Positions 2,842 through 30,112 of a stretch of 64,000 nucleotides of DNA are shown in pieces. Below the pieces are notes generated by a model, which saw nothing but the letters and a program-made list of their open reading frames with translations, had not been told where the DNA came from and ran no database searches. Location of the stretch: positions 1,251 through 65,250 of the forward strand of contig CAZIFG010000001.1 in NCBI GenBank assembly GCA_964539135.1, in the 5' to 3' direction. Numbering within the stretch: the first letter of the stretch is position 1; every line of letters starts with the position of its first letter. The DNA is from an uncultured Rickettsiales bacterium (GTDB taxonomy: Bacteria; Margulisbacteria; Marinamargulisbacteria; GCA-2716485; CAZIFG01). The position numbers and the translations under genes are program-made.

Positions 2842-3744
2842 ATGGAAACAGTCGGCTTTTTTTATCGTAAAATATGTCATGAGTTGGCCCCTGTTGCAGA
2901 GTCTCAATCTGATCTTGAAGCAGAGTGGCTCTTTTGTTTTGTTTTAAACTGTTCTCGATCCCAATTTTTTTTGCGGTTTTCAGATCTTTTAGTGCCAGAT
3001 GTGCAGTTAAATCTGGAGGCTTTGGTTGCGCAGCGGCTTACAGGAAAGCCCTTGGCTTATATTTTGGGCTCTGTTTCCTTTATGGGGCGTGTGTTTCAGG
3101 TGAAAGAAGGCGTTTTAATTCCACGTCCTGAAACCGAGCGCTTGGTAGAAGAAAGTGCGTCTCGTTTGAGGCAAATTCTAGGAGATAGACCCTTTATTGG
3201 GTTTGAATGTGGGTGTGGTACGGGTGTTATTTCCTTGAGTTTAGCCTCTTTGTTTCTTCAGTCTCGATGGGTGGCCTGGGATATTAATGCGGCGGCCATT
3301 GCCTGTTCCATTCAAAATGCTCGGCAGCTGGATCTTGTGGATAGGGTGACGTTTATAGAAGCGGATTTTTTTGAGGGCCTTTCGCAACAGCCCCAAGGTG
3401 ATGATTATAAAGAGGTGATGATTCAGGATTTACCCTTGGTTTTTGTGAGTAATCCGCCCTATATTTCGTCTTTTGACTGTACCCAATTGGATGCGAGCGT
3501 GACATCTTTTGAGCCTTTATCGGCTTTGGATGGAGGCGTTGATGGCTTGGACTTTTATCGAAAATTTAAGACCTTTATGAGTACATTTAAGCCTATTTTT
3601 TCTGCTTTTGAACTGGGGCAATTCCAATTTCCAGCGGTTCAGGCGATTTTTCAAGATATGGGACATACAGAAGCCTATCTGGATTATCAGGGCATTCAGA
3701 GAGGGATTATGGTTTCGCAACAGTCCCATGATTTTAAGTCTTAG
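2842..3744 (+). CDS. prmC: Release-factor glutamine N5-methyltransferase (HemK/PrmC)
   Basis: SAM-binding GCGTGVIS and catalytic NPPY (VSNPPYI). Classic position downstream of prfA. Confidence 0.85.
   Translation: METVGFFYRKICHELAPVAESQSDLEAEWLFCFVLNCSRSQFFLRFSDLLVPDVQLNLEALVAQRLTGKPLAYILGSVSFMGRVFQVKEGVLIPRPETERLVEESASRLRQILGDRPFIGFECGCGTGVISLSLASLFLQSRWVAWDINAAAIACSIQNARQLDLVDRVTFIEADFFEGLSQQPQGDDYKEVMIQDLPLVFVSNPPYISSFDCTQLDASVTSFEPLSALDGGVDGLDFYRKFKTFMSTFKPIFSAFELGQFQFPAVQAIFQDMGHTEAYLDYQGIQRGIMVSQQSHDFKS
3713..3727 (+). repeat. Solo terminal-repeat fragment of the palindromic element, inside the 3' end of prmC
   Basis: TTTCGCAACAGTCCC is identical to the right terminal repeat of the element family. 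It encodes the prmC tail ..VSQQSH. Confidence 0.5.
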
Positions 3745-3755
3745 GGATAAATTTT

Positions 3756-3897
3756 GGGACTGTTGCGAAACGCCTATTTTGGCCATCTGCTGTGTTATCC
3801 TCGTCCTCAAGTCCTCATTTATGTCTCATAAACTCCGGGCTTTCGGACTCGGAATGCCTTGCAGCTGATCCAAACGTAGTCATTTCGCAACAGTCCC
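3756..3897 (+). mobile_element. Palindromic miniature element, copy 1 (142 bp), between convergent prmC and the sigma-54 activator gene
   Basis: GGGACTGTTGCGAAACGCCTA ... TAGTCATTTCGCAACAGTCCC terminal inverted repeats. Flanked by ATTTT at 3751-3755 and 3898-3902. Followed by a T-run. Confidence 0.85.
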
Positions 3898-3913
3898 ATT
3901 TTTTATTCATCGT

Positions 3914-5368
3914 TTAATTGGGTAGGGGAATCTGATATTTTTCCAATTTGTTGTAGAGTGTGGTTCTGGAAATTCCCAATGCTTTGGCGACTTGTAACAT
4001 ATTACCTTTTTTGAGTTCTAAGGCGTGCTCAATGGCTTTTTTTTCGAGTTCGTCTAAGGGCAAAATGAGGCTTGGATGCATGTAGGGGGCTGGCGCCTTA
4101 TCGGGTGGGTTGAGGAGCAGTTGTTCTTTTTGTCCGGGTTGGTAGGTTAAAATTTCTCGGGAAATGGGCTGTCCTTGTGCAATGATGAGGCCTCTATGTA
4201 GCGTATTTTCAAGCTCTCGGGCATTGCCTTCCCAGCGTTGTTGCATTAAATATTGCGCCGCATCTTCCGTTAAGAGGGGGGTGGGGATTTTTAACCGTTT
4301 AGAGAGGATGTCTAAAAAATGATGGGATAAAGGCAGTATGTCTTCGGGGCGCTCTCTAAGGGGGGGGATGTAAATGGGGAAGACATTGAGGCGATAGTAG
4401 AGGTCTAATCGGAATTTTTTATCATCTACGAGTTGTTTTAAGGGTTGGTTGGTGGCGGCAATAATACGCACATTGACTTTAATGGTTTTTGTGCCCCCTA
4501 CAGGATCTATTTCTTGATTCTGAAGGGCTCTTAATAATTTAACCTGGGTTTCTAGATTCATTTCTCCAATTTCATCTAAAAAGAGCGTGCCGCCGTCTGC
4601 CAGTTCAAATTTTCCAGGTTTTTTATCATCAGCACCTGTAAAGGCGCCTTTTACATGTCCAAATAATTCAGATTCAATGAGCTCTTTGGGAATGGCTCCA
4701 CAATTAATGGCAATAAAGGGCTTGGATTTTCGATTGGAGTTTTTGTGAATCGCCGTTGCAATGACATCTTTTCCCGTTCCACTTTCACCTTGGAGGAGGA
4801 CGGTGATGTCTTTTTCCAAAATCAGATCTAAGGCCTTAAAGACCTCTTTCATGGCAGGACTGTCTCCAATTAAGGCCAGTGCGTTGTGTGCTGTATTGAT
4901 TTTTTCAAGGTAGTGAATGTGTGCGGTTTGGCGAGAGATGAGTTGTTCTTTTTCGGCACTGTACCGTTCAAAGGTTAAAATCCCTAGAATATCGAGGCTG
5001 TTTTCCAGTTGTAACAGTTGCTCTTTTTCTTTGTCTTGAAGGGTATCGCTGTTCAGTGTCATTAAACTGGTTTTAAGTGCGTAAATGAGGAGTGCGGTGT
5101 CCTTAATGCTAAATCCATGGCTAATTTGTTCTTTTTGAAGGTTGTGAAATAAGGAAAGAATGGGCTCTATTTTTTCTTTTTGAATGATTTCTATTTGGGG
5201 ATTTTTGACTAGGGCTAAGAGTTCACTTAATAATTTTTTACTGGTAGGTTCTAAATGGATGTTTTTTTGCAATCCTTCTTCAGAATAGTGGGGATTTTCT
5301 TTGAGTTCTGCAATCCAATTGTTTAAAATCGTTTGCGGTTCTAATCCGGTAGGTTCTGTGTTATGCAT
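3914..5368 (-). CDS. Sigma-54-dependent transcriptional activator (bacterial enhancer-binding protein) without a receiver domain
   Basis: AAA+ Walker A GESGTGKD, GAFTGA loop, ELFGH, C-terminal Fis-type HTH (ISRTTLYNKLEKY). The N-terminal region of about 165 aa has no response-regulator Asp pocket. Confidence 0.85.
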   Translation of the reverse strand: MHNTEPTGLEPQTILNNWIAELKENPHYSEEGLQKNIHLEPTSKKLLSELLALVKNPQIEIIQKEKIEPILSLFHNLQKEQISHGFSIKDTALLIYALKTSLMTLNSDTLQDKEKEQLLQLENSLDILGILTFERYSAEKEQLISRQTAHIHYLEKINTAHNALALIGDSPAMKEVFKALDLILEKDITVLLQGESGTGKDVIATAIHKNSNRKSKPFIAINCGAIPKELIESELFGHVKGAFTGADDKKPGKFELADGGTLFLDEIGEMNLETQVKLLRALQNQEIDPVGGTKTIKVNVRIIAATNQPLKQLVDDKKFRLDLYYRLNVFPIYIPPLRERPEDILPLSHHFLDILSKRLKIPTPLLTEDAAQYLMQQRWEGNARELENTLHRGLIIAQGQPISREILTYQPGQKEQLLLNPPDKAPAPYMHPSLILPLDELEKKAIEHALELKKGNMLQVAKALGISRTTLYNKLEKYQIPLPN

Positions 5369-5427
5369 ATTTTTCTCTGCCCATTGTGTTCAATTTTTAA
5401 ACACTTTAAAACTTTTTTGAGAGGACG

Positions 5428-6270
5428 TCAAGAGCGTGTGCTGAGTGCTGGAAGTATCGCGTCTGGGGTTCCCCATTTGGTGCATTCTTCTGCTTCTGAA
5501 TATTGAAAGGCGATACCTGTGTCTTTGATCCAACAGCCGCTTATTCCCAATTCTGTTTGCAGTGCCATGACATTTTCTAAATTGTCATCAAAAAACCATA
5601 CGCTTTTATCTAGGGTGAGAGTGGATGTGTCTTGGATGATTTTTTTTACAATTTTTGTAAAATTGGAGAGTGGTTTTCCGATCCAATGGATGGGGCGTTG
5701 TAGGATTTCTTCTAGTGTTTCGGCATAATAACCTACAACTGCTTGGTGTCTATCTTGAACTCGAATCATGCGATCTGGATTGCAACAAATGACGGGAATT
5801 TCAGGGGTATGATGGCAATGAGAAATAAGAGGCGCTAATACATCGTGTGTATTGTCTCTGGGACCTGATGTTAAAACAATGACTTCGCTTTCCTCTACGT
5901 GAGGTGTTATTTTTTTGGCTTTTGCACGGATTATATATTCATGAGAATAGGGGGATCCAAAGACGTAGGCAATTTTGTTTTCGATGAGCCTGCGTATGAC
6001 CGGATCATGTTCTAACCCACTACCAGATGAAATGATATGGGATTCTGGGATATGAATGCCAAACGTGTTCAATCGCGTTTCTATTCGTTTTGGATTTTGA
6101 AAGGCATTGTTTGTGATCAGATAGCAGGGACCCAAGGTTTGAAAGTGTTGGATGATTTCAGGCACAGATTCAAAGGCAGAGGGTTTGTCTGTATAAATCA
6201 CACCGGAAGCGTCCAATAAAAATCCTTTTGGATTGCTTTTTAAGATCTCGGTTAAGGTGCGTTTGATCAT
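5428..6270 (-). CDS. HAD-superfamily hydrolase, subfamily IIA-like
   Basis: LLDASGVIY motif I-like, ITNNA, and FFDDN near the C-terminus. Start chosen at the ATG that forms an ATGA overlap with the ispE stop. Confidence 0.65.
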   Translation of the reverse strand: MIKRTLTEILKSNPKGFLLDASGVIYTDKPSAFESVPEIIQHFQTLGPCYLITNNAFQNPKRIETRLNTFGIHIPESHIISSGSGLEHDPVIRRLIENKIAYVFGSPYSHEYIIRAKAKKITPHVEESEVIVLTSGPRDNTHDVLAPLISHCHHTPEIPVICCNPDRMIRVQDRHQAVVGYYAETLEEILQRPIHWIGKPLSNFTKIVKKIIQDTSTLTLDKSVWFFDDNLENVMALQTELGISGCWIKDTGIAFQYSEAEECTKWGTPDAILPALSTRS

Positions 6271-7235
6271 AAACTTTCTGTTGCTACCATCTGAAGGGGG
6301 CATTCTAGACTTAGTTTTTCTTTATAATTTTCGGCTTCGCTTAGGGTGTTAAATGGGATAAATAAAGTAGAGCCGGATCCAGACATATACCATTGTTTGG
6401 GACTTATTTGAGTGAGTGTATCTGTTATTTTTTTAAGTTCTGGATACAGAATAAGTGCAGGTTCTAAGAGATCATTTTTTCCCAGTAGGGGATTTGGGCA
6501 AATGGGGTGGGCGGGTTCTTTTGCTGCATGGGGATACTGTTCATCGAATGTTTTATAGATTTGGGTGGTATCGCAGTGGATATTGGGAAAAATCAGCAGG
6601 TAAGCTTGAGTTTTACTTGGAAGGCTTACGATGTTTTCTCCAATGCCATAGACCCAGGCACATCCACTTTGGGACTGTTGTGAAATGCCTATTTTGGCCA
6701 TCTGCTGCGTTATCCTCGCCCTTAAGTCCTCATTTATACCGTATAAACTCTGGGCTTTTGGACTCGGAATGCCTTGCATATGATCCAAACGTAGGCATTT
6801 CGCAACAGCCCCACTTTTTAAAAAAAAGGGGACATCGGAGCCGGCTTTTAGTGCAATGGGGATTAAGCTTTCAAGGGGATGATTCCAAGATTCTAAGGTA
6901 TTCAAAACATTTAAAAAACAGGCGGCATTACTGCTTCCGCCACCGAGTCCGCCTCCCATGGGAATGTTTTTTTCAATGTGGATGTGGTAGCCATACTGAC
7001 AGGGCAGTTGTTGATATATTTTCCAGAGGATATTGGTTTCATTGAGCGGAACATCAGGATGTGTGGCTGTGATTTGAAGCCCTTTTTGGGTGCTTTGTTC
7101 TATGGTGAGGGTATCTGAAAGGGAGAGGGTTTGAAAAATAGAATTGATCGGGTGATATCCATTAGATCGCGGTGCATAGATCTGTAAGGATAAATTTAAT
7201 TTTGCAGGAGATAAGTATTTAACTTTTTTTAACAC
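6267..7235 (-). CDS. ispE: 4-diphosphocytidyl-2-C-methyl-D-erythritol kinase carrying an in-frame 49-codon element insertion
   Basis: KLNL.L start region, GHMP kinase motif PMGGGLGGGSSNAA, GSDVPFFL ... GIGE. The ORF is 322 aa, or about 273 aa once the insertion is removed. GTG start. Confidence 0.85.
   Translation of the reverse strand: MLKKVKYLSPAKLNLSLQIYAPRSNGYHPINSIFQTLSLSDTLTIEQSTQKGLQITATHPDVPLNETNILWKIYQQLPCQYGYHIHIEKNIPMGGGLGGGSSNAACFLNVLNTLESWNHPLESLIPIALKAGSDVPFFLKSGAVAKCLRLDHMQGIPSPKAQSLYGINEDLRARITQQMAKIGISQQSQSGCAWVYGIGENIVSLPSKTQAYLLIFPNIHCDTTQIYKTFDEQYPHAAKEPAHPICPNPLLGKNDLLEPALILYPELKKITDTLTQISPKQWYMSGSGSTLFIPFNTLSEAENYKEKLSLECPLQMVATESL
6671..6812 (+). mobile_element. Palindromic miniature element, copy 2 (142 bp), inside the ispE coding sequence
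   Basis: Full-length match to the family. Flanked by ACTTT at 6666-6670 and 6813-6817. 142 + 5 = 147 nt = 49 codons, with no stop in the ispE frame. Confidence 0.9.
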
Positions 7236-7245
7236 AGGTTCTTTT

Positions 7246-7276
7246 AAAGCCCCCCTGATTAAAGGGGGGCTTTTTT
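7246..7276 (-). terminator. GC-rich hairpin between the PPIase gene and ispE (bidirectional-type intrinsic terminator)
   Basis: GCCCCCC (7249-7255), 8-nt loop, GGGGGGC (7264-7270), flanked by an A-run and a T-run. On the minus strand the trailing U tract is only 3 nt. Confidence 0.5.
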
Positions 7277-7281
7277 CATTC

Positions 7282-8169
7282 TTAATGGTTTTCTTTAGAC
7301 TCTTCTTTTTTCTCGTCTTCTTTTTCGTCTGCTTTTTTAATTTTGGCTTTGGCTTTTAATCCATCAAGATAGGTGTTGATGGCAGCGCCTTGTTTTTGAT
7401 TTTGCAAAAATTGTTGAATTTGACCTTTTACAGATTCAAAGGGTTTTTCAGGTGCAATTTGAATGTCTTCTAGTCTCATGACATGGTATCCAAATTGTGT
7501 TTTGACAATGCCGGATACTTCTCCCTTTTTAAGGGCGAAAGCAACTTTTTCAAAATCAGGTACGAGATCTCCACGTTTGAAAAATCCAAGGTCTCCGCCA
7601 TTTGCTTTTGTTGGGTCCATTGATTTTTCTTTGGCGAGGGCTTCAAAGTTTTTGCCTGATTTTAATTCAGCTAAGATTTTTTTGGCTTCTGCTTCTGTTG
7701 CGACTAAGATATGACGGGCACGTCGTTGCTCGTATCCTTGGAATTGGGCTTTGTTGTTTTCATAAAATTGACTGACATCTTGTTCCGTTACAGCAATGTT
7801 TTTTTCAATATTATCTTTTAAAATCATATTGATTAAGAGCTGATTTTTGCTGTTTTGAAGTTGTTCTTCTAAAGTCGCGATTTGCTCTTTATACTCTGGT
7901 TTTTGATCTAATTTTTGTTTCTTAGCTTCTTGTAGAATGAGTTCCTCGTTGACCAGTTGATCTAAAAGTAATTTTCTATTTTCTGTTGCTGCGAAAGACG
8001 CTCTGGTGTTTTCAGGTAGAGATTGAATGCGTTTGTCCATTTTTTCTTGGGTAATTTTGACACCATTTACAGTGACTAGCGCTTTTGATTTATCATTACC
8101 ACAGGCGGTCAGAACGGTTAAGGTTGCGACGGCAAGCACTGTGTTTCGGATTAACGTACTTTTTTTCAT
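7282..8169 (-). CDS. Parvulin-type peptidyl-prolyl isomerase lipoprotein (PrsA/SurA-like)
   Basis: Lipobox LTACG. Rotamase domain ARHILV...GGDLGFF..G.L.P.F...F.L..GE.S..V.T.FGYH. Confidence 0.8.
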   Translation of the reverse strand: MKKSTLIRNTVLAVATLTVLTACGNDKSKALVTVNGVKITQEKMDKRIQSLPENTRASFAATENRKLLLDQLVNEELILQEAKKQKLDQKPEYKEQIATLEEQLQNSKNQLLINMILKDNIEKNIAVTEQDVSQFYENNKAQFQGYEQRRARHILVATEAEAKKILAELKSGKNFEALAKEKSMDPTKANGGDLGFFKRGDLVPDFEKVAFALKKGEVSGIVKTQFGYHVMRLEDIQIAPEKPFESVKGQIQQFLQNQKQGAAINTYLDGLKAKAKIKKADEKEDEKKEESKENH

Positions 8170-8188
8170 GATTCTTTTAACTCCTTAT

Positions 8189-8225
8189 ATATGAGGACTT
8201 CTAATAGGCGTTTCGTAACAGTCCC
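8189..8225 (-). repeat. Truncated, internally deleted copy of the palindromic element (left arm only, opposite orientation)
   Basis: The reverse complement reads GGGACTGTTACGAAACGCCTATTAGAAGTCCTCATAT, matching the left repeat plus the AAGTCCTCAT core. It ends 3 nt from the AAGGAG Shine-Dalgarno sequence of the PPIase gene. Confidence 0.6.
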
Positions 8226-8313
8226 AATAGTGGCTTATTCTAACAATGGGGCACTGCTTTGTCCACTAAAATTATTCTCAAAATGGGGGTGTTTTATGTC
8301 CCTTTTTGGGGTT

Positions 8314-10410
8314 TTAAAACTTGGTTGTAGGGACTAAATTGATGCGTTTTTGATCATCAATTTTATCGACTTTTATTTCGAATCTATCGCCTACTTTTAC
8401 GATATCTTCTACGTTTTCAACCCGTTTATCTGATAGTTTTGAAATATGGATTAGCCCTTCTTTTCCGGGATATAGTTCCACAAAACATCCAAATTGCATG
8501 ATTTTAGTGACTTTTCCGTCGTAGATTTCACCCACTTCAGGTTCTTTTGTTAATCTTAAAATCATCATTTTAGCGGTTTTTACACTTTCGCCTGATTTTC
8601 CAGAAATTTGGACTTCGCCTGTATTGCCATCTGATACAACCACACTGGCGCCGGATTCTTCTTCGATGTGTCGAATCATTTTGCCGCCAGGTCCAATGAC
8701 GAGACCTACTTTTTCGGGATTGATGGAAATGGTTTCAATTTTAGGCGCATTTTCAGAAACGGATTCTCTTGAAATAGAGAGTGTTTCTGCCATTTTGTTT
8801 AAAATGTACAGTCTGCCTTCATTGGCTTGATTGAGTGCATTTTCTAAAATTTCTCGTGATAAACCAGATACTTTAATATCCAATTGAAGTGCGGTGATTC
8901 CTTCTTTTGTTCCTGCGACTTTAAAATCCATGTCGCCATAATGATCTTCTAATCCTTGAATATCGGATAGGATGACGTAATCGTTTCCATCTAATAGCAA
9001 TCCCATGGCGATTCCGGATACCGGTGCTTTAATCGGTACGCCACAATCCATTAAGGCCATAGATCCCCCGCATACAGAGGCCATGGACGAGGATCCGTTG
9101 GATTCTAAAATTTCAGATACAATTCGAATGGTATAAGGAAAGGCATCTTGTGTGGGTAGAACCGCAAGTAAGGCTCTTTCTGCTAAGGCACCATGTCCCA
9201 ATTCTCGACGGCCTGTTCCAATTCTACCCACTTCTCCTACTGAAAATGGGGGGAAGTTGTAATGAAAGAAATAGGCGCTAGATTGGGTGTCATCCAGACC
9301 GTCTAACATTTGCTCGTCTTTACTATCACCTAGGGTGACCACGCACAAACTTTGGGTTTCTCCTCGGGTAAATAGGGCGGATCCATGCACGGAAGGCAGT
9401 ACACTGACTTGGGTTTCTATGTTTCGGATTTCTGTTGTTTTTCTGCCGTCAGGTCTTACTTTTTTTGTGATAATTGTTTTTCTGATTTGATCTTTTTTAA
9501 CGGTTTGGAAGGCTTTCTCAATGGCCTTTTTTTGGAGTTCCGTGTCATCTTCTTTTACAAAGGCAGCTTTGACCTCTGCCTCAATGCTGGAAAAGAGATC
9601 TTCTATTTCTTGTTTGGAGTTGGGACTGGTGAGTGCCAATTCAAATCGGTTACCTAAAAATGTCGCGATTTCTTGTTCCAGCCTATCTGCTTCTGTGGTA
9701 TTAGATTCGATGACTTTCTTTTCTTTTTTGGTTTGAGCGACCAAATTATCTTGTAGGGCAATCATCTGTTTGATGGCTTCGTGCCCAAACATGATGGCAT
9801 CTAAAATTTGGGATTCTGAGACTTCTTTGGCTTCGGACTCGATCATTAAAATGGCATCTTTTGTGCCGGCCACTGTTAAATTGAGTTTGCTTCGGGTGAG
9901 TTGTGCCGGAGAGGGATTTGTGACCAATTCGCCATCAATGAGTCCAACCACGACGCCTGCAATGGGGCCATTAAAGGGGATGTCCGATACGCTTACAGCT
10001 GCAGATGCGGCTGTAATGGCGAGGGATTCTATAGAAACAGTGGGGTCGTAAGATAGAACAGTGATGATAATTTGAACTTCATTATAGAACCCTTTTGGGA
10101 AGGTAGGACGTAAGGGTCTGTCAATGAGTCGTGCGATTAAAGTAGCATTCGTGCTGGGTCGGGCTTCTCGTTTGAAAAATCCACCGGGGATTTTTCCTGC
10201 GGCATACATTTTTTCGGCAAATTCTATGGTGAGGGGGAAAAAATCGATCCCTTCTTTGGGCGATTTACTCATGACTGCAGTGGCCAAAAGAACCATATCT
10301 CCACATTGAATTGTTACGGAGCCATTGGCTTGTTTTGCCAAAACGCCGGTATTTAACCTTACTTCTCGTCCCGCAATTGTCTGTGAGCTGGAATGTCCAC
10401 CTTTTATCAT
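8314..10410 (-). CDS. pnp: Polyribonucleotide nucleotidyltransferase (PNPase)
   Basis: Two RNase PH domains, KH and S1 domains, 698 aa. rpsO lies immediately upstream, as is typical. Confidence 0.95.
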   Translation of the reverse strand: MIKGGHSSSQTIAGREVRLNTGVLAKQANGSVTIQCGDMVLLATAVMSKSPKEGIDFFPLTIEFAEKMYAAGKIPGGFFKREARPSTNATLIARLIDRPLRPTFPKGFYNEVQIIITVLSYDPTVSIESLAITAASAAVSVSDIPFNGPIAGVVVGLIDGELVTNPSPAQLTRSKLNLTVAGTKDAILMIESEAKEVSESQILDAIMFGHEAIKQMIALQDNLVAQTKKEKKVIESNTTEADRLEQEIATFLGNRFELALTSPNSKQEIEDLFSSIEAEVKAAFVKEDDTELQKKAIEKAFQTVKKDQIRKTIITKKVRPDGRKTTEIRNIETQVSVLPSVHGSALFTRGETQSLCVVTLGDSKDEQMLDGLDDTQSSAYFFHYNFPPFSVGEVGRIGTGRRELGHGALAERALLAVLPTQDAFPYTIRIVSEILESNGSSSMASVCGGSMALMDCGVPIKAPVSGIAMGLLLDGNDYVILSDIQGLEDHYGDMDFKVAGTKEGITALQLDIKVSGLSREILENALNQANEGRLYILNKMAETLSISRESVSENAPKIETISINPEKVGLVIGPGGKMIRHIEEESGASVVVSDGNTGEVQISGKSGESVKTAKMMILRLTKEPEVGEIYDGKVTKIMQFGCFVELYPGKEGLIHISKLSDKRVENVEDIVKVGDRFEIKVDKIDDQKRINLVPTTKF

Positions 10411-10441
10411 TATTATAGTCCTTTTTTAGATCGTGCTGCGT

Positions 10442-18346: not shown

Positions 18347-18565
18347 TTATTTTGCCCTAAATGTAATGCGGCCTCTTGTTAAGTCGTAAGGGGATAATTC
18401 TACTTTGACTTTGTCGCCCAATAAAATTCGGATATAATTTTTTCGCATTCTGCCTGAGATATGGGCTAAAATAATCTGACCGGTCTCTATTTCAACTCGA
18501 AACTGAGCATTTGGAAGAGATTCTATGATTTTACCTTCAACTTCAATTGTGTCATTACCTGCCAT
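18347..18565 (-). CDS. infA: Translation initiation factor IF-1
   Basis: 72-aa S1-like protein: [25 protein letters not shown]...[32 protein letters not shown]. The longer 128-aa track ORF is an artefact of the upstream element. Confidence 0.9.
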
Positions 18566-18621
18566 GATAGAATATATCCTATCACGGGTAGGGCGTTTGT
18601 AGAAGGGGGGTTTTTTTGGGG

Positions 18622-18757
18622 GGGGCTGTTGCAAAATGCCTATTTTGCCCATCTGCTGTGTTATCCTCGTTCTTAAGCCCTCATTTTCACATATAAGGGC
18701 TTTCAGACTCGGAATGCCTTGCAGCTGATCCAAACGTAGGCATTTTGCAACAGCCCC
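18622..18757 (+). mobile_element. Palindromic miniature element, copy 3 (136 bp, 6-nt central deletion), in the infA upstream region
   Basis: Perfect 21-bp terminal inverted repeats (GGGGCTGTTGCAAAATGCCTA / TAGGCATTTTGCAACAGCCCC). The left boundary is blurred by a G-run. Confidence 0.85.
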
Positions 18758-22122: not shown

Positions 22123-22131
22123 CTGTGTATT

Positions 22132-22626
22132 TTAACGGCTTACTTCGGCCTTGGAAAGGTGTTTTTCACTATCAAGCAAGTGTTTTTTGATCTCTTGACC
22201 GTTTTCTTTTGTCTCTCCACATGAATATTGACCTATTCCGCCTGACTTCGGCACAACACGATGACAGGGGAAATAAAGAGGGAAGGGATTGTTGGCAAGT
22301 GCTGTTCCTACGGCTCTTGCAGCTTTTGGCATTCCGATATTTTGTGCAATTTCAGCATAATATCGAGTTTCACCTAAGGGGATTTGAGAGACTTCCTCTA
22401 AGACTTTTTTTTGAAATGGCGTTAGACGTGTTGTATCGATGATTTGGTTTTTTAATGCCCCTACAAGGATGCTTAAGGAGACTGGGCCATTTTCTGATGG
22501 AGATAGCTGTATTCTAATTACTTCTCCTTTTGCATTATAAGACCATTTTATATCTAGGGACTGTTGCAAAACGCCTATTTTGGCCATCTTCTGTGTTATC
22601 CTTGTCCTCAAGTCCTCATTTATCAT
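22132..22626 (-). CDS. ogt: Methylated-DNA--protein-cysteine methyltransferase; its present start codon and first 24 codons lie inside an element copy
   Basis: Active site PCHRVV and helix-turn-helix YAEIAQNIG..KAARAVG. See the finding on the interrupted 5' end. Confidence 0.75.
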   Translation of the reverse strand: MINEDLRTRITQKMAKIGVLQQSLDIKWSYNAKGEVIRIQLSPSENGPVSLSILVGALKNQIIDTTRLTPFQKKVLEEVSQIPLGETRYYAEIAQNIGMPKAARAVGTALANNPFPLYFPCHRVVPKSGGIGQYSCGETKENGQEIKKHLLDSEKHLSKAEVSR

Positions 22627-22698
22627 CTATAAATTCCGGGCTTTCAGACTTGGAATGCCTTGTATATGATCCAAACGTAAGCATTTTGCAACAGTTCT
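22557..22698 (+). mobile_element. Palindromic miniature element, copy 4 (142 bp), inserted in the 5' end of ogt
   Basis: Full-length family match, flanked by ATCTA at 22552-22556 and 22699-22703. Confidence 0.85.
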
Positions 22699-22838
22699 AT
22701 CTATATTTAATAGGGAATTCTGGTTTTTCATGGCATTATTATAACATGATTTCTTTATTTTTATATTTTTTGATTTTTTATATTTAATGTTGTTTATTTT
22801 TATTTTATTTTTTAAATTTATGTGGTATATTTTGGCTC

Positions 22839-23768: not shown

Positions 23769-23806
23769 ATTTTATGGATGCTTAAAAAGTGGGACTGGTG
23801 GAGGAA

Positions 23807-25345
23807 TTATAACAGGGAGAGGCCTTCTTTTGCCCATGTGTAGTTTGGATTTAGTTTTAAGGCCAGTTTGAATTGTAGTTCGGCTTCTTTTTTTTCGTTT
23901 AATACATAGTGGCACAACCCAATATTATAATGGTGGGCTTCATCTTCTAATTCGAATAAGGTCATCGATTTTTTATAGCATTCCATTGCGTGTGTATACT
24001 CTGAAATTAAATAATAGAGTCGCCCAATTTCAAAGAGTTGGTGTACTTTATTTGGAAAGATATAAACCTGAGCTTCGGCGAGTTTTAAACCTCTTTGTAA
24101 TATGCTTTGGTCCCGAAGTGTGATGGTTTGAATTTTTTTATTTAATACTTCGGATAGGGAAAATAGTACTTCTGGGTCCCAATAGGCTAAATCTAAAAGG
24201 GTGTAGAGCTCGTCTGGGGTATGATTTTCGGCTTGTTTTAATAGGATGTTTTTTAATAAAATAAAGGATTCTGGGGGCATTCTATTATTGAGTAAATTAA
24301 AGATGTGATTTGTTTTTGGGTAATTTTCTTTTGAATGTGTCCAGAATAAACATACTTTTAATCCTGCATTTTCTGTGGGGAGATGACTTTGCCCCCCTTT
24401 TAAGTGGATATATTTTGAGAGGGCATCAAAATTTGTCATCAGTGAAAAGCTGCCGTGAAAGGCAATGTGAACTTGTTTGATGTCTTCAAAGTTTTGTTCG
24501 TTAATATGGCCTTTGTCCGCAGAGATTATAAAGGCCCCTTGTTTGGATAGCGAGGCTAGATGATCTATACATTGAACACCGCCAATGGGGATAATAAATG
24601 TCGCTGATTTTAAGGTGTTTTTGTAGTTTTCAAGAACAGCATTGAGTGGCTCATTCTTATAATACTCTGTATTAATGGGCTTAAAATCGAAGTGATGCTT
24701 TAGGGGATCCATTGAAATGACACCCTTTTTTTTACAATTACTTTTAGGTGAGGATGTTGTGATCAGTCCCTCGTAGAGGGTATGGTTTTCGACTTTAAAC
24801 GCATCGTGAGGGATGGTGTCAAAGAGATAATTTGAAATGACAATGAGTGGATTTTTTCGGCTGTTTGAGTCTAAAATTTCGCCACTGTATTTTAGCTTTA
24901 TCGGATGTGTTTGATAGCAGTCATATTTAGCGTAATCTAAAAGACCTTTTTCTTGAAAGTGCTTTAATTGAGGCTGTTTTTCCCAATAGGAGATAATTCT
25001 TTCTGTGAAATCGGTCATGACATATTGAAACTTTAAATGTTCTAGTCCAAATGTGTGTCTTAAGGTGTCTAGGTGTGTGAGACATAAAAATGAAAATTTG
25101 CCAGACCCACTGCCTAATTCTATGCAGGTAATGGCTTCTTTGGGGTCTATGATGCCCCTTTCAATGCTTTCTTGAATGTAGGTGATGATGGTATTGGCGT
25201 AGGTTGTTGCGATGACGCTGTTGCTTGTGACATAAAAGGGCACAGCGCCTTTCCAAGAATCAATGCCTTTTTCATTAAAATAATCTTGCTGAAATTGCCA
25301 AATTTTGGAGTGCGATAAGCGTTGTTTTTTTTCCAGTTCTTTCAT
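23807..25345 (-). CDS. Putative SAM-dependent methyltransferase (MidA/NDUFAF7-like fold) fused to C-terminal TPR repeats
   Basis: IELGSGSGKFSF glycine-rich SAM loop, VISNYLFDTIPHDAF (resembles the ANEFFDALP motif of the family), TPR-like C-terminus. Confidence 0.5.
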   Translation of the reverse strand: MKELEKKQRLSHSKIWQFQQDYFNEKGIDSWKGAVPFYVTSNSVIATTYANTIITYIQESIERGIIDPKEAITCIELGSGSGKFSFLCLTHLDTLRHTFGLEHLKFQYVMTDFTERIISYWEKQPQLKHFQEKGLLDYAKYDCYQTHPIKLKYSGEILDSNSRKNPLIVISNYLFDTIPHDAFKVENHTLYEGLITTSSPKSNCKKKGVISMDPLKHHFDFKPINTEYYKNEPLNAVLENYKNTLKSATFIIPIGGVQCIDHLASLSKQGAFIISADKGHINEQNFEDIKQVHIAFHGSFSLMTNFDALSKYIHLKGGQSHLPTENAGLKVCLFWTHSKENYPKTNHIFNLLNNRMPPESFILLKNILLKQAENHTPDELYTLLDLAYWDPEVLFSLSEVLNKKIQTITLRDQSILQRGLKLAEAQVYIFPNKVHQLFEIGRLYYLISEYTHAMECYKKSMTLFELEDEAHHYNIGLCHYVLNEKKEAELQFKLALKLNPNYTWAKEGLSLL

Positions 25346-25467
25346 GATTCTGATTTACCCTTTTTGTGTCTGTTTAAACCTTGGGACGGGAGATGATTTT
25401 CTTGGATGTGGTCATGCCTGTCTTTTTTACAGTATACTGTGTTTTATTTTTTATTTGGAGGACTTTT

Positions 25468-26022
25468 ATGATTCGGGCCGCTATTCTTTTAGCCGATGGA
25501 TTTGAAGATATTGAAGCCTTTGCTGTTATTGATATTTTAAGACGTGCTGGGGCTTTACTTTCTATAGTGGGTGTTTCGGCTTTAGGGGTACGCTCAAAAT
25601 TGAATGTTCGGGTTCATGCTGAACTGACTTTAGATGCAATTTCAGACACCTTGTTTGATCTTCTTATTTTGCCAGGGGGCGGTGAGGGCGTTCAGCATTT
25701 ATCTGAAAACGCAGCTGTTCGTGCGTGTATTGCCTTGCATGATGCACATCGCAAATGGATTGCGGCTATTTGTGCGGCGCCTACTTTATTAGAATCGATG
25801 GGTCTGTTAAGGGGACGTATGGCAACCTCGTATCCCTCTCTTAAATACAGGTTTCAAACCTGTATTTATGCTGAAACATCGGTGGTGTGTTCGGATCATA
25901 TTATTACTTCAAGAGGGCCTGGGACGACCTTTGAGTTTGCTTATTTTTTAGTCGAAAAATTATATTCTAAAGCCTTCTCCGATGCTTTGAAACATGAAAT
26001 GGTTTTTGAACAGAAAGTTTAA
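25468..26022 (+). CDS. DJ-1/PfpI family protein
   Basis: ILLADGFEDIE, nucleophile elbow AAICAAP. GGAGGA lies 6 nt upstream of the ATG at 25468. Confidence 0.8.
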   Translation: MIRAAILLADGFEDIEAFAVIDILRRAGALLSIVGVSALGVRSKLNVRVHAELTLDAISDTLFDLLILPGGGEGVQHLSENAAVRACIALHDAHRKWIAAICAAPTLLESMGLLRGRMATSYPSLKYRFQTCIYAETSVVCSDHIITSRGPGTTFEFAYFLVEKLYSKAFSDALKHEMVFEQKV

Positions 26023-26026
26023 GCGA

Positions 26027-26452
26027 TTAAACGCCTTTTTGATGTACAAATAAGAGGGTTGTGTGTTGGATTTTTTTGATCATGGCAAAAAAACCATTGG
26101 TTCTACTGGGGCTTAAATGTTGGTCCAATTCCAATTCCGCAAAAAGACTTTGGATATCTAAGGTGATGATTTCTTTGGGCGTTTTATTTTGCAGGGCGCT
26201 TAGGATTACGGCAATAAGTCCTTTTACAATACTGGCATCGCTGTCTGCTATGAATTCAGGATTTTCGGCCTCTGGATTTTTAACTACAATCCATACATTA
26301 CTCATGCATCCCAATACTTTATTTTCGGCTGTTTTTTCTGTTTCAGGGAAAGGAGGGAGTTGCTTTCCAATTTGAATGAGATATTTAAATCGGTCATCCC
26401 AATGATTGAGGGCGCGAAAATTGGCTTTAATTTGATCTAAATGAGGTAACAT
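26027..26452 (-). CDS. sufE: SufE-like cysteine desulfuration (sulfur acceptor) protein
   Basis: LGCMSNVWI active-site Cys context, 141 aa. The start ATG overlaps the hemB stop (TAATG). Confidence 0.75.
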   Translation of the reverse strand: MLPHLDQIKANFRALNHWDDRFKYLIQIGKQLPPFPETEKTAENKVLGCMSNVWIVVKNPEAENPEFIADSDASIVKGLIAVILSALQNKTPKEIITLDIQSLFAELELDQHLSPSRTNGFFAMIKKIQHTTLLFVHQKGV

Positions 26453-27417
26453 TAGAGTCTTTTTGCAATTTCTAGGGCGGCGTAAGTAAAAATCATGCTG
26501 GCGCCTGCTCGTTTTAAACATAGGAGAGATTCTTGCATGATGGCGTTTGCTTGTTCTTGGGTATGTGTTGGATTCATGATCATGCTGTATTCGCCGCTGA
26601 CTTGATAGGCAGCGATGGGAAGAGTGCATGTGTTTGCGAGCTCTCTGATAATATCAAGGTAAAAAATACCTGGTTTTATCATGAGTATGTCAGCGCCTTC
26701 TTGGATATCCAATTGACATTCTCTTTGGGCTTCGAGTCTATTTGCTGGATTCATTTGATAGGTTTTTTTATCGCCTTCTCGGGGTTCCGAATTTAAGGCA
26801 TCTCTAAAAGGACCGTATAAACTCGAACAATATTTAGCTGCATACGACATGATGAGTGTCTTTTCCTGTTGATTCTGATCCAGTGCGCTTCTAATCGCAG
26901 CCACGCGGCCATCCATCATGTCGGAGGGGGCTACAATATCAGATCCGGCTTCTGCTTGTAAGACAGCCATTTCAGCTAGTATTTCAACGGTTTCATCATT
27001 GAGAATGTTTCCGTTTTTAACTAAGCCATCGTGGCCATCGCTGGAATATGGGTCTAGCGCAATATCCGAAATGACCAGAAGGTCTGGAATAGTATCTTTA
27101 ATCGCACGGATTGTTCTGCAGGTTAAGTTGTTTGGGTTGAGGGCTTCGTTTGCGTTGGGACTTTTGAGTTTATCTTCGATGACAGGAAAGATGGCAATAC
27201 CTGAGATGCCTGCTTTTTGAGCCTCTTTACTGATTTTGATCAGATCGTTTAACGAATATCGAAAACATCCGGGCATGCTTTGAATGGGGGTTGATTTTGG
27301 GCCTTCCTGCACAAAAAGAGGCAGAATTAGATCTTCGGGATGCAGGTGTGTTTCTTGAACTAAATGGCGTATAGCTGGATTTTGTCTTAGTCGTCTTGGA
27401 CGGTGTAAAAGGGTCAT
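26452..27417 (-). CDS. hemB: Porphobilinogen synthase (delta-aminolevulinate dehydratase), Asp-rich zinc-independent type
   Basis: RPRRLR and [14 protein letters not shown] (rather than the Cys-rich DxCxCxY..GHCG). Full length of 321 aa. Confidence 0.95.
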
Positions 27418-27893
27418 AATTGAGTTGGGTTGGGGGCGTCCCCATAGATCTCTTTAGGGTCAAAGACTTTGTGACTTTCTTCGTAGTGTAAGCGAGGCTG
27501 TTCTGTGAGTTGGGCACCTGTTGGAATGCTTCTGTAAAAACAGGATCTATATCCTACATGGCAACTGGCGGCTAATCCTTGGACTTCTACTCTGAGCCAG
27601 ATACAATCTTGGTCATCGTCAATTCGACATTCTTTAATGCGTTGTATGAGACCACTTGTTTTGCCTTTGTGCCACAGCGCTTGTCTGCTCCGACTATAAT
27701 AGACCGCTTCTCCGGATTCTAAGGTTTGAACCAGTGCTTCCTCATTCATGTAGCCATGCATGAGGAGTTCTCCGCTATGGTAGTCGGTTGTTACAACGGG
27801 GATGAGGCCTTTTTCGTCAAATTTTGGCGCTAAATCGAAGCCTTCTTCTACTTGTTCTACGCTGATTCTTTTTTCAAAATAGGGCTTGGTCAT
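27414..27893 (-). CDS. hisI: Phosphoribosyl-AMP cyclohydrolase (stand-alone HisI domain with a C-terminal extension)
   Basis: GLIPVVTTD...[11 protein letters not shown]...[16 protein letters not shown]......I..DDDQD....V......SCH.GY.SCF. The track ORF is trimmed at the tRNA. Confidence 0.8.
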
Positions 27894-27915
27894 GACGGTT
27901 TCCTTGCTTCTTACG

Positions 27916-27991
27916 TGGTGCGCTCGGTAGGAGTCGAACCTACAACCTCTTGATCCGTAGTCAAGTGCTCTATCCATTAAGCCACGAGCGC
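27916..27991 (-). tRNA. tRNA-Arg (anticodon ACG), CCA encoded
   Basis: Manual fold of GCGCTCGTGGCTTAATGGATAGAGCACTTGACTACGGATCAAGAGGTTGTAGGTTCGACTCCTACCGAGCGCACCA gives a 7-bp acceptor stem, anticodon loop CTACGGA and T-loop TTCGACT. Confidence 0.9.
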
Positions 27992-28007
27992 TCTGTTTAG
28001 GAGCCTG

Positions 28008-28016
28008 ATTGTATCA
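28008..28016 (-). promoter_or_regulatory. Possible extended -10 promoter element for the tRNA-Arg / hisI transcript
   Basis: TGATACAAT on the minus strand, ending 17 nt upstream of the mature tRNA 5' end. No convincing -35 element. Confidence 0.3.
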
Positions 28017-28115
28017 TATTTATGTGGTTGAATCTAGATTCTTTTCAAAATAGGGGGGAGGGCAACAATTTCCTGTGTTGATGGCTTTATTTCTCTATTA
28101 ACCTTGGACTGGTTT

Positions 28116-29918
28116 TTACGCGGGGATACCGTTTTCGGGGCTGTCCCCAATTTGAATGTGCCATAAGTCAGCGTAAAGGCCTTTTTTTTCTAAGAGGCTT
28201 TCATGGGAGCCTTCTTCTGCAATTTTTCCGTCTGTGAGTACTAAAATACGGTTTGCGTGTCTTAGGGTTGAGAGTCGATGGGCAATAATAATAGCTGTTT
28301 TTCCTTTTGTGAGCGTATTGAGATTTTTTTGAATCGCGCGTTCTGTTTCCGTATCTACGGAACTTGTGGCTTCGTCAAAAATCATGATAGGCGCATTTTT
28401 AAGAATGGCTCTTGCAATGCTGAGACGCTGCCGTTGTCCGCCCGATAATTTAATCCCCCTTTCGCCTACAATGGTGTCGTATTTTTCCGGTAATGTTTGT
28501 ACAAATTCATCTAGTTCGGCTTCTTTTGCAGCTTTGATGACGGCATCTTGAGGGAGTGTTTCATTGTTTCCGTAGGCAATGTTTTCGTAAATGGTGCCAT
28601 GAAAGAGGTAGACGTCCTGGCTGACCAGCGCGATGTTTTTTCTGAGTACATTTAAGGGAATATGGCGACTGTCTTCGTCATCTATCATGATCGAGCCTTC
28701 AGTTGGGGCGTATAATCGAAGTAGGAGTTTAATCAGTGTGGATTTTCCGGATCCTGTTGTGCCTGCGATACCAATAATTTCATTTTTTTGAATGGTGGCA
28801 TGAATGCCTTTTAAAATAGGGATTTTGTTTTCATACGCAAATTGGATGTTTTTAAGCTCTATTTTTCCATTTAGAGTGGTTTTTTGAGTATTATATCCCT
28901 CTGTTTGAGGTTCTGCAGGGGCGTCTAAAAGATCAAAAATACGTCGGCAACTTGCATTGGCACGTTCATAATCATCTAAAATGACACCTAGCTCTGTTAG
29001 GGGCCATAACATTCGTTGAATGAGCATGGAAAATAAGACCAATTCCCCAAGGGTTAAAATGCCTTTATTTTCTAAAACCCAGTAGCTTCCGATAAACAAG
29101 ACGCCTGCAAATCCGAGTGCGATGATCATTCGAATGAGGGGGACATATAAACTGGATAGCTTAATGGCTTCAATATTTGCGGATTTGTAGGCTTGACTGG
29201 CCGCTTCTACCCGCCTTTTTTCAAAGGCTTCGGCTGTGAAACTTTTGACCACTAAAATGCCGGCCAAGTTATTTTCTAGCCTACTGCTTAATTTTCCAAC
29301 ATAGTCTCTAAGTTTCGCATATTTGGGGGATATCTTTTTTTGATAATAGAGACTTCCCCAAATGACAAAGGGCATAGGGGTAAGGCATACAATCGCCAAT
29401 TGCCACGATGTTGTAAATAAAACGAGGCTTGAAAATATAAAAAGAATGCCAATTTGAACCAATTTGTTAAATCCAGTGTTTAAAAAGCGTTCAAGTTGGT
29501 TGACATCATCATTTAAGATGGCCATGGATTCGCCTAGCCGGTGGTTTTCAAAAAAAGATAAGGGCCTATTTTGGAGATGATTGTAGGTGTCTAATCTTAA
29601 AATATGTTGAATCGTTTGTGCCAGTGTAAAAAATTGGTATTGGTACATCCATTGAAAAAAACTTTCAAATCCAAAAATAATAAAGCCCAGACAGGCTAAA
29701 AAACCTGCCATTTTTAAGGGATCTTCTGTGCCTGTGATCATTGAAATCCAGTTCGGAGGTGTTCCTTTAACAGAATCAATGACCCATCCTACCAATAAAG
29801 GGGGCATGAGGTCCAAGATCTTATTTAAAATGCTTGCAGTGCTGGCCAGGCTTAATTCTTTATAATAGGGCCTAAGATAGGCGAATAATTTTCTCATAGG
29901 ACTTGAATTTTTTTTCAT
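28116..29918 (-). CDS. ABC exporter, fused permease/ATPase (MsbA-like type I exporter)
   Basis: Six-helix TMD followed by Walker A GTTGSGKST, signature LSGGQRQR and Walker B IMIFDEATS. Confidence 0.9.
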   Translation of the reverse strand: MKKNSSPMRKLFAYLRPYYKELSLASTASILNKILDLMPPLLVGWVIDSVKGTPPNWISMITGTEDPLKMAGFLACLGFIIFGFESFFQWMYQYQFFTLAQTIQHILRLDTYNHLQNRPLSFFENHRLGESMAILNDDVNQLERFLNTGFNKLVQIGILFIFSSLVLFTTSWQLAIVCLTPMPFVIWGSLYYQKKISPKYAKLRDYVGKLSSRLENNLAGILVVKSFTAEAFEKRRVEAASQAYKSANIEAIKLSSLYVPLIRMIIALGFAGVLFIGSYWVLENKGILTLGELVLFSMLIQRMLWPLTELGVILDDYERANASCRRIFDLLDAPAEPQTEGYNTQKTTLNGKIELKNIQFAYENKIPILKGIHATIQKNEIIGIAGTTGSGKSTLIKLLLRLYAPTEGSIMIDDEDSRHIPLNVLRKNIALVSQDVYLFHGTIYENIAYGNNETLPQDAVIKAAKEAELDEFVQTLPEKYDTIVGERGIKLSGGQRQRLSIARAILKNAPIMIFDEATSSVDTETERAIQKNLNTLTKGKTAIIIAHRLSTLRHANRILVLTDGKIAEEGSHESLLEKKGLYADLWHIQIGDSPENGIPA

Positions 29919-29956
29919 AGGCGCTATTTTAGCGTTCTTTTGAATCCAATTCTAGG

Positions 29957-30093
29957 GGGGCTGTTGCAAAACGCCTATTTTGGCCATCTGCGGTGCTATC
30001 CTCGTCCTCAAGTCCTCATTTATACCGTATAAGGGCTTTCGCTCTCGGAATGCCTTGCAGCTGATCCAAATGTAGGCATTTCGCAACAGTCCC
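29957..30093 (+). mobile_element. Palindromic miniature element, copy 5 (137 bp, 5-nt central deletion), upstream of the ABC exporter gene
   Basis: Family match with both terminal repeats. Flanks are CTAGG (29952-29956) and CTCGG (30094-30098), matching at 4 of 5 positions. Confidence 0.85.
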
Positions 30094-30112
30094 CTCGGTA
30101 TTTTTTAACTGC

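Follow-up and report, generated by a model that had tools for sequence, protein, structure and literature searches.

A probable family of miniature inverted-repeat transposable elements in an uncultivated Margulisiibacteriota genome

The repeat copies and their settings

The window, as the whole 64-kb stretch of DNA analysed here is called, comes from an organism whose PNPase has named relatives in Margulisiibacteriota only, the next-best match being 68% identical. It carries five full copies of a palindromic repeat, all on the plus strand and all at the positions given in a preliminary description of this DNA. The first (w1, 3756-3897, 142 bp) lies between the convergent prmC (+) and sigma-54 activator (-) genes and is bracketed by ATTTT at 3751-3755 and 3898-3902. 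The second (w2, 6671-6812, 142 bp), with ACTTT at 6666-6670 and 6813-6817, sits in frame inside ispE and is hence not intergenic. The third (w3, 18622-18757, 136 bp) occupies the infA 5' leader, 57 nt upstream of the native infA start codon; its 21-nt inverted repeat is perfect, and no duplication is recognisable, the left edge being a G-run. The fourth (w4, 22557-22698, 142 bp) is flanked by ATCTA at 22552-22556 and 22699-22703, and the fifth (w5, 29957-30093, 137 bp), with the imperfect pair CTAGG/CTCGG, has a minus-strand gene on either side and is 39 nt upstream of the start codon of an ABC transporter gene. Mean column identity of these five copies is 83%, flanks included.

Fragments of the repeat are also present. 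Two had been noted beforehand, at 3713-3727 and 8189-8225, and both are real: the former, a solo terminus of 15-16 nt at 3712-3727 with no strand assigned, makes the last codons of prmC (VSQQS), and the latter is a minus-strand left-arm relic with an internal deletion (8186-8225; the 21-nt tip plus AAGTCCTCAT), which occupies a PPIase gene leader and is opposite in orientation to the full copies. Two further relics were found. A second solo terminus, TTTCGCAACAGCCCC (3380-3394, 15/15 match, no strand assigned), is in frame inside prmC and encodes SQQP, and a degenerate right arm (CAGCTGATCC ... TTTCGGAACAGCCCC) lies on the plus strand between convergent genes at 47913-47951. The earlier statement that the last 34 kb are free of the repeat thus holds for full copies but not for relics.

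Five additional copies, on contigs that are separate from the window but belong to its organism (same ENA assembly, same coverage of ~6x), bring the known total to ten. They were located via element-encoded peptides by an exhaustive profile search of proteins; a word-indexed protein search with an element peptide had given no match. The density is ten copies in 91 kb, or about one per 9 kb, and spacing can be close, with gaps of 2.8 kb between w1 and w2 and 0.5 kb between copies a1 and a2. Element length is 136-142 bp. Because the copies differ from one another by 5-17%, transposition of the family may have ceased.

The consensus tips read GGG(A/G)CTGTTGC(A/G)AAA. The terminus pattern is matched 11 times against 0.14 expected, and the 15-nt tip 18 times against 1.2. 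[quoted passage not shown] The interior is partly self-complementary as well; each copy is an imperfect palindrome over its whole length and forms a single long hairpin (z -5.6 to -10.5). Position 12 of the arms, to which attention had been drawn, pairs as G-C in six of the ten copies and as A-T in three, and is mismatched in one. The longest open frame in the element is 47 codons and none encodes a transposase, in keeping with MITEs, which are shorter than 500 bp.

A single orientation had been described, and this is true of the full copies in the window but not of contig L073, where three copies point one way and one the other. The element's minus strand is the one transcribed by local genes in 8/8 decidable cases (two-sided p ~0.008 for a rule framed post hoc). 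The plus-strand hairpin runs into T-rich flank and would act as a polar terminator, the likely reason for such a bias. Replication as the determinant of orientation was rejected, the copies being split 6 to 4 relative to GC skew.

Target duplications and insertion within genes

The perfect direct repeats ATTTT, ACTTT and ATCTA were confirmed; of the other two window copies, the one with CTAGG/CTCGG has a 4/5 match and the copy at 18622 has none. Across the family, the 5-bp direct repeat is perfect in seven of the ten copies, matches at 4/5 in one more, and is absent in two. A 5/5 match would arise by chance with a probability of 0.0019, and at least seven among ten with p ~1e-17; the duplication is constant in length, no direct repeat extending past 5 bp, and the duplicated target DNA is AT-rich.

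Four of the ten copies lie within genes, namely ispE, lolA, dinD and probably ogt. The ispE gene (6267-7235, minus strand; 322 aa, Pfam GHMP_kinases_N and _C) is normally essential. Its insert of 142 + 5 = 147 bp amounts to 49 codons, approximately residues 142-190, and is stop-free on the element minus strand. IspE chains in the PDB align to residues 5-143 and 192-306, leaving the insert without counterpart, and the insert columns are empty in 52 of the 54 nearest homologues and hold one residue in the other two. The TIGR00154 profile matches the protein in two stretches with the insert (152 bits) and in one without it (168 bits). In the AlphaFold model, the core has pLDDT >90 except for one 10-residue block at 88, and the insert scores 39-74; the core fold is thus predicted to be intact, with the insert modelled, at low confidence, as an excursion from a beta-turn. 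The junction gains independent support from a separate sequencing run, one contig of which begins inside the ispE copy.

The other genic copies extend this picture. dinD is split by a 137-bp copy; on excision its two ORFs become a full DinD of 250 aa, for which the NF008573 match is a single stretch (E = 3.7e-96). Excision from lolA yields an N-terminus in which MRDKIGSLMLALWIVTVPISA is joined directly to KE, a canonical signal peptide, and the family profile falls into register. For copy w4 the probable host is an ogt-like gene, entered in frame at 11 codons from its start, and within the element one TAG stands directly before the ATG now annotated as the ogt start; PDB and NCBIfam comparisons gave no confirmation of this junction, the N-terminal domain being one that is not conserved. 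The copies in ispE, lolA and ogt all use frame 0 of the element minus strand, which is open in ispE and lolA, whereas in ogt a stop interrupts it and translation would restart at the ATG behind. In-frame carriage concerns at least two genes, probably three. The element plus its duplication measures 141 or 147 bp in six of the ten copies, and this length, together with a minus-strand frame that can be open, would let some genic insertions survive as in-frame peptides.

In-silico removal of the element and one repeat thus leaves intact genes in ispE and dinD and a canonical N-terminus in lolA. Since excision restores intact genes, the copies are true insertions, and the empty site is seen indirectly, in the excised sequences and in the insert-free IspE homologues. 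Contigs recovered from other datasets all match the window (99.95-100% where measured), copies included, and among these sampled populations neither an empty-site allele nor a presence/absence polymorphism was seen. With ten copies, seven exact 5-bp duplications and genes restored by excision, the core proposal of the preliminary description, a non-autonomous miniature transposable element, is upheld, and the repeats very probably constitute a MITE family of an uncultivated, Marinamargulisbacteria-like member of the Margulisiibacteriota. It is a novel example of an already known kind of element rather than a new kind.

The ends and the mobilising enzyme

The absence of a transposase from the window, previously asserted, was supported by a Pfam scan of ORFs of at least 150 aa, all but two that are short and lie within larger ORFs, which returned no transposase match; a few of the scanned ORFs lacked any match. 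Neither a transposase nor an autonomous partner with the same ends occurs in 91 kb (the 64-kb window and contigs L072 and L073), so that non-autonomy, as previously claimed, holds for the DNA seen. We infer mobilisation in trans. The two tips would be the binding and cleavage sites of a transposase supplied from elsewhere, presumably of the DDE type because of the inverted repeats and the fixed-length duplication. Insertion proceeds by a 5-bp staggered cut in an AT-rich target, repair of which leaves the exact 5-bp direct repeat, and selection would presumably then act as a filter, with surviving copies mostly intergenic.

A tentative possibility is that the family derives from, and is moved by, an IS6/IS26-like transposase lineage whose duplications measure 5 bp instead of the usual 8 bp. 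Each of the 20 ends agrees with the 14-bp consensus GGTTCTGTTGCAAA of that family in 10-12 places, with most mismatches at positions 3-4, which are the most variable of the consensus (PMC6807381). Among its conserved positions, G1, G2 and G7, invariant in the consensus, are each kept in 19/20 ends, and the conserved G10 in 20/20 (PMC6807381). The ends also show the GG tip and the cTGTt and caaa motifs, and the family is known to yield MITEs, ISfinder listing two of them (PMC7986276). For ISSto2, one of the listed members, the record gives a 5-bp duplication together with long repeats (PMC6807381). Against such a derivation, the recorded duplications of the family are 8 bp (PMC6807381, PMC7986276), whereas here they are 5 bp in 7/7 intact cases; moreover, no IS6 transposase occurs in the 91 kb, the ends of ISAcma1, the one cyanobacterial member inspected (GGGTTGTGTCGCAAA), are less similar and without a visible duplication, and a 12-nt match could arise by convergence. 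Under current family definitions, IS6-type tips and a 5-bp duplication contradict each other. As the IS6/IS26 family normally duplicates 8 bp, the mobilising transposase is not assigned from the tips.

The preliminary description had instead seen in the GGG(G/A) tips and 5-bp duplications the mark of Tn3-family-derived miniature elements. Such an origin, TIME-like and with movement by a Tn3-family transposase, now looks unlikely. Past the GGG(G) tip, an average of 4.7 of 34 positions are shared with the 38-bp repeat of Tn3, against a random expectation of 8.5; this was a direct comparison with one Tn3-family repeat, the sequence of which was verified in at least 5000 plasmids. Repeats of the Tn3 family carry TAAG at their inner end, and it is absent here. 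A blastn search of 72,556 plasmids found no related end, and the tips agree with the consensus of another family, that of IS6/IS26. What does fit is that the tips begin GGG(G/A), that arms similar over ~20-25 of the first 30 nt make a long inverted repeat conceivable, and that the duplication is exact, 5 bp and AT-rich, as in Tn3-family transposons and TIMEs (PMC4133298, PMC13367494). TIMEs, however, are mostly single-copy, a typical rather than strict feature attributed to target immunity (PMC4133298), and here ten copies occur in 91 kb, two pairs being separated by no more than 0.5 and 2.8 kb. Both the Tn3 and IS6 families transpose by copy-in replication, which is thus also the most likely mode here.

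That the repeats are not mobile but kept in place, as a structured RNA under conservation or as a REP-like or terminator-like regulatory palindrome, is highly improbable. In favour of this reading, either strand gives a very stable hairpin, with the better fold on the minus-strand RNA in nine of the ten copies, changes are paired at tip positions 3, 4 and 12, and orientation tracks transcription in every decidable case (8/8). Yet the exact 5-bp duplications, the copies within coding sequences with ORFs restored by excision, the lack of any Rfam match to the element (a tRNA being the sole match in the window), and a covariation term of ~0 in the aligned copies, with no pair outside the tips changing on both sides, speak against such a motif and led to its rejection. 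Variable sites show no codon-position bias, and a simple scan of 3500-8400, which covers two of the five window copies, calls no promoter or terminator. The hairpin of the ispE copy is no weaker than those of the other copies; with the covariation and codon-position results, this led to RNA-level selection being dropped.

Relatives and implications

Searches for relatives of this MITE family outside its genome were negative. The tip pattern has 61 loci in GTDB representative genomes, none with both ends and, by rough estimate, no more than chance would give; loci that share the tip pattern are without IS6-type elements. Scans of JGI metagenomes gave nothing or chance matches, that of IMG/VR gave nothing, and blastn against PLSDB gave noise alone (E >= 1). 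A repeat family in Peptococcaceae has an identical 22-nt tip, but it lacks duplications and varies in length; it probably bears no relation to the present family, or at most a remote one of IS6 type. The literature search found no report of MITEs in Margulisbacteria.

Among known systems, the family resembles the IS6/IS26-family MITEs MITEBth2 and MITEHarch3 in its GG tips, its CTGTT and GCAAA motifs and the absence of a transposase gene, but its duplication is 5 bp as opposed to 8 bp and its size 136-142 bp as opposed to 227 and 336 bp; unlike them, it is palindromic over its whole length, high-copy and chromosomal, with no cognate IS seen in 91 kb. With Tn3-derived TIMEs it shares non-autonomy, G-run tips and AT-rich 5-bp duplications (PMC4133298, PMC13367494), the last falling within the 5- or 6-bp AT-rich duplication that characterises TIMEs (PMC4133298), whereas its ends have no similarity to Tn3-family 38-bp repeats, its length is about half that of TIMEs (256-262 bp) and its many copies are closely spaced, while a genome mostly has a single TIME. 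Rickettsia palindromic elements (RPEs) are palindromes of ~100-150 bp that lie in frame in housekeeping genes, to which they add a conserved peptide (PMC10969869). The carriage in ispE, lolA and probably ogt is RPE-like in behaviour; in contrast to RPEs, the host belongs to an unrelated phylum, terminal inverted repeats and 5-bp duplications are clear, just 3/10 copies are in frame and one disrupts a gene. Other bacterial MITEs that are palindromic throughout, of the ERIC, Correia and Nezha type, duplicate TA or other lengths, and duplication length as well as tips set them apart. They are alike in small size, hairpins, mostly intergenic sites and co-transcription with neighbours (PMC10969869).

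A speculative history, somewhat doubtful as a whole, would join these observations. An unrecognised branch of IS6/IS26-like transposases making 5-bp duplications would have multiplied a palindromic MITE within a candidate-phylum genome, to a density near one copy per 9 kb; a length of 1 mod 3 and an open minus-strand frame would have let a 45-49-aa module persist in the essential genes ispE and lolA, an RPE-like situation outside Rickettsia, and the element would donate start codons to downstream genes.

Practical consequences are already apparent. Gene callers have been misled, ATGs within the element being taken for the start codons of infA, of ogt and of a truncated form of ispE, and short-read assemblies are broken by the elements. 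The combination of IS6/IS26-type ends with a Tn3-length duplication is a clash of classification, and the partner enzyme, if found, would show the range of duplication length within one transposase family. The copies in ispE and lolA are a natural test of insertion tolerance, the first for a conserved enzyme loop and the second for a signal peptide, and the in-frame copies extend the picture of selfish DNA inside genes known from Rickettsia. For an uncultivated lineage, these elements provide a useful marker for the dynamics of the genome.

Copies, relics and target duplications

By every testable criterion the palindrome is a MITE. A repeat finder recovers the five copies of the preliminary description at 3756-3897, 6671-6812, 18622-18757, 22557-22698 and 29957-30093, and in an alignment of these with their flanks (mean column identity 83%) similarity breaks off right at the GGG...CCC tips. 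The window contains 11 matches to the tip pattern, where 0.14 are expected, and 18 to the 15-nt tip, where 1.2 are expected; every copy folds into one long hairpin whichever strand is taken (z -5.6 to -10.5). The flanking 5-bp repeats are as that description gave them, and, in keeping with its statement that the window lacks a transposase, no transposase domain was found in the ORFs of at least 150 aa that lie outside larger ORFs. An Rfam search of the window returned tRNA only and no match for the element.

Further copies were reached with a profile built from the element's minus-strand peptide and searched against 1.84 billion representative proteins. Two proteins were found whose ends run into an element, on contigs L072 and L073 of the same organism, which belong to the same assembly and have the same ~6x coverage. 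These contigs hold five more copies, four with perfect 5-bp repeats (AATAT, ATGTT, TAGAT and TATTT). The direct repeat is thus exactly 5 bp in seven of ten copies and never longer, with a 4/5 match in one more; the chance of a 5/5 match being 0.0019, seven in ten corresponds to p ~1e-17. The copies are 83-95% identical (mean 88%), come in three lengths (142, 137 and 136 bp), and occur about once per 9 kb. Two on L073 (1947-2088 and 2602-2738), in the same orientation and 514 bp apart, surround a gene for a small RRM-domain RNA-binding protein; as the first has its own duplication, the pair does not reflect composite transposition. Three polymorphisms are incongruently distributed in the ten-copy alignment, namely a 5-nt indel (columns 77-81), CAGCTG versus CATATG, both palindromic hexamers (109-110), and a G-C versus A-T tip pair (12/131). 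The first two are found in all four combinations, and the incongruence suggests that copies have recombined or undergone gene conversion with one another.

Both fragments noted earlier, at 3713-3727 and 8189-8225, are present. The latter is part of an internally deleted left-arm relic (8186-8225), opposite in orientation to the full copies, and a tip search added a degenerate right-arm relic at 47913-47951. Among promoter-like sites in the scanned region, the best one (TGGACA-17-TAGAAT with TG upstream; 8237-8265, minus strand) is located shortly upstream of both the 8186-8225 relic and a PPIase gene, so that the relic would belong to the leader of that gene. Within prmC (2842-3744) two solo tips of 15-16 nt lie in frame, one at 3380-3394 (a 15/15 match) encoding SQQP and one at 3712-3727 encoding VSQQS, the latter supplying the C-terminal tail and stop context. 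Compared with E. coli PrmC, the loop preceding the NPPY motif is presumably ~14 aa longer. The two tips may be what is left of old in-frame insertions after most of their sequence was deleted.

Insertions within genes

The elements are insertions, and four copies lie inside genes, one of them, in an ogt-like gene, probably so. On L073 (10001-10895) a 137-bp copy separates 170-aa and 117-aa ORFs, which the gene caller lists as two genes. In-silico deletion of the copy and one repeat fuses them into a 250-aa DinD protein that matches NF008573 in one stretch (E = 3.7e-96).

The 6671 copy lies in ispE, whose frame is kept because 142 + 5 = 147 bp, or 49 codons, without a stop codon. The insert, whose peptide includes INEDLRARITQQMAK, interrupts the conserved turn FFLxGG|TALVxGIGE; PDB IspE chains align on either side with nothing opposite it, and its columns hold no residue in 52 of the 54 nearest homologues and one residue in the other two. 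Against TIGR00154 the protein matches in two stretches with the insert (152 bits) and in one without it (168 bits). AlphaFold gives the core a pLDDT >90, except for one 10-residue block (88), and the insert 39-74 with one predicted helix. A contig from an independent run, SRR7369911, begins inside this copy and runs on through ispE. The exact 'empty' 273-aa IspE is absent from a 15-billion-protein collection.

On L072 a 136-bp copy (136 + 5 = 141) lies five codons into a lolA-like gene. Its in-silico excision yields MRDKIGSLMLALWIVTVPISA|KE, in which the n-, h- and c-regions read as a standard signal peptide, and puts the family profile in register. The 22557 copy (147 bp including the repeat) appears to lie 11 codons into the ogt-like gene. 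An in-frame MKNQNSLLNID is present upstream, and the copy carries one TAG followed immediately by the ATG that is the annotated start. The N-terminus of this protein is poorly conserved, and homology comparisons gave no confirmation of the junction.

The in-frame cases in ispE, lolA and ogt are all read on the element minus strand in the same frame, which is open only in the ispE, lolA and infA-leader (18622) copies. Gene-caller starts fall at ATGs inside the element at window 18565-18757 (MAKIG...), at window 22557-22626 (MGKIG...) and on contig L080 at 16-450 (MINEDL...), giving respectively a 101-aa IF-1 call (72 aa from the native start), the ogt-like gene and a truncated IspE. GAGGA repeats lie ~11 nt upstream of the MAKIG ATG, and the minus strand may act as a portable ribosome-binding site and start codon. 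MITEs inserted in frame are on record from several bacteria, and in behaviour the element resembles the Rickettsia palindromic elements (RPEs), which likewise sit in frame in housekeeping genes (PMC10969869).

Orientation and the hairpin

The uniform orientation described earlier holds for the five window copies, all plus, and fails on L073, where three copies point one way and one the other. Replication was rejected as the cause, since relative to GC skew the ten copies split 6 to 4, and L073 is mixed. Throughout 1-64000 the GC skew stays positive (+0.16) and the AT skew negative (-0.17) with no switch, and the window falls entirely on one replichore, its plus strand being the leading strand; L073, unlike the window, has G>C together with A>T. 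Neighbouring genes transcribe the element minus strand in 8 of 8 decidable cases (6671, 18622, 22557 and 29957 in the window, a1, a2 and a3 on L073, and the lolA copy), a post hoc rule with a two-sided p of ~0.008, the other two copies lying in convergent or divergent spacers. The plus-strand hairpin is followed by a T-rich flank (ATTTTTT, ACTTTTT, TTTTTT and the like) and the minus-strand hairpin by an A-rich one; from this arrangement, plus-orientation copies would be polar terminators purged by selection. A terminator scan of 3500-8400 called none at the two copies covered.

Selection of the hairpin as RNA has little support. The conserved structured RNA or regulatory motif raised as an alternative in the preliminary description fared poorly in a covariance check, with a covariation term of 0.08 kcal/mol; two-sided pair changes are limited to tip positions 3, 4 and 12, and the variable sites are not biased towards any codon position. 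In 9 of 10 copies it is the minus strand that gives the better fold, an asymmetry that counts once because it was inherited from a common ancestor. The match between arms noted earlier at position 12 is correct, the position being paired in 9 of 10 copies; homogenisation of the arms or matching sites for the transposase could explain it equally well.

Host population and kinship of the family

For the PNPase of this organism the databases contain a single identical entry (NCBI/ENA/Logan); the next relatives reach only 68% identity and, where named, are Candidatus Marinamargulisbacteria or Margulisiibacteriota. Adjacent minus-strand genes at 57673-60833 carry the ATP-citrate lyase domains Citrate_bind, ATP-grasp, CoA-ligase and Citrate_synt, which hints at reductive TCA capability in the lineage. 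An ORF at 3-1335 (plus strand) has an endosialidase-chaperone (Peptidase_S74) domain, and the next a weak T9SS sorting-domain match.

Contigs of the same strain come from an ENA assembly and from Logan assemblies of four runs; where aligned, they match the window at 99.95-100% identity, and they carry the same element copies; no empty allele was found among contigs of the sampled population. Unitig-style Logan contigs stop ~27-46 nt inside elements, as expected of a multi-copy repeat. Such ends recur in several independent runs (among L002, L071, L075, L080, L081 and L082, with L071 exceptional in ending ~10 nt short of the element), so that the family fragments short-read assemblies of this organism. 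Exact-pattern scans of GTDB species representatives, JGI metagenomes, IMG/VR and PLSDB gave no second genome with the family, the literature searched yielded no report of MITEs in Margulisbacteria, and no autonomous partner occurs in the 91 kb examined, all from one population.

By their tips the closest relatives are IS6/IS26 elements. Searching the literature for the tip sequence brought up IS257 and IS1216 as well as the IS6/IS26 family consensus GGTTCTGTTGCAAA. In this consensus G1, G2 and G7 hardly vary, G10 is conserved, and variation is greatest at positions 3-4 (PMC6807381); a GG tip and the motifs cTGTt and caaa are further family features (PMC7986276). All 20 element ends match this consensus at 10-12 of 14 positions. 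However, the family makes 8-bp direct target repeats, only ISSto2 being recorded with the 5 bp found here, and only two MITEs are known in it (PMC6807381, PMC7986276). A different palindromic repeat in the Peptococcaceae MAG JAAYUV01 (L009, L011, L019, L022, L026, L027, L035, L038-L040, L048, L053, L060 and L062) has nearly identical first 22 nt (GGGGCTGTTGCAAAACGACTAG) and the complement of these at its other end; it is ~60 to >250 nt long, without target duplication, and may likewise derive from an IS6/IS26-type element or resemble the family by coincidence. Various Clostridia (L005, L014, L061, L018/L057, L032, L058 and L034) have short terminator-like hairpins from the same tip, GGCTGTTGCAAAATGACTA ... 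TAGTCAT..GCAACAGCC.

Mobilisation by a Tn3-family transposase, as first proposed, is improbable, although the duplication length points to it and is shared with Tn3-derived miniature elements (TIMEs): beyond GGGG the ends agree with the Tn3 38-bp repeat (verified in at least 5000 plasmids) at 4.7 of 34 positions, where 8.5 are expected at random, and copies lie as near as 0.5 kb, unlike TIMEs, which are 256-262 bp and mostly single-copy, a feature attributed to immunity (PMC4133298). As the tips indicate IS6/IS26 and the duplication length indicates Tn3, with no partner seen, an IS6/IS26-like origin is tentatively favoured and no enzyme is assigned. The family is a known kind of element, mildly interesting for the mismatch between its tip sequence and its duplication length.
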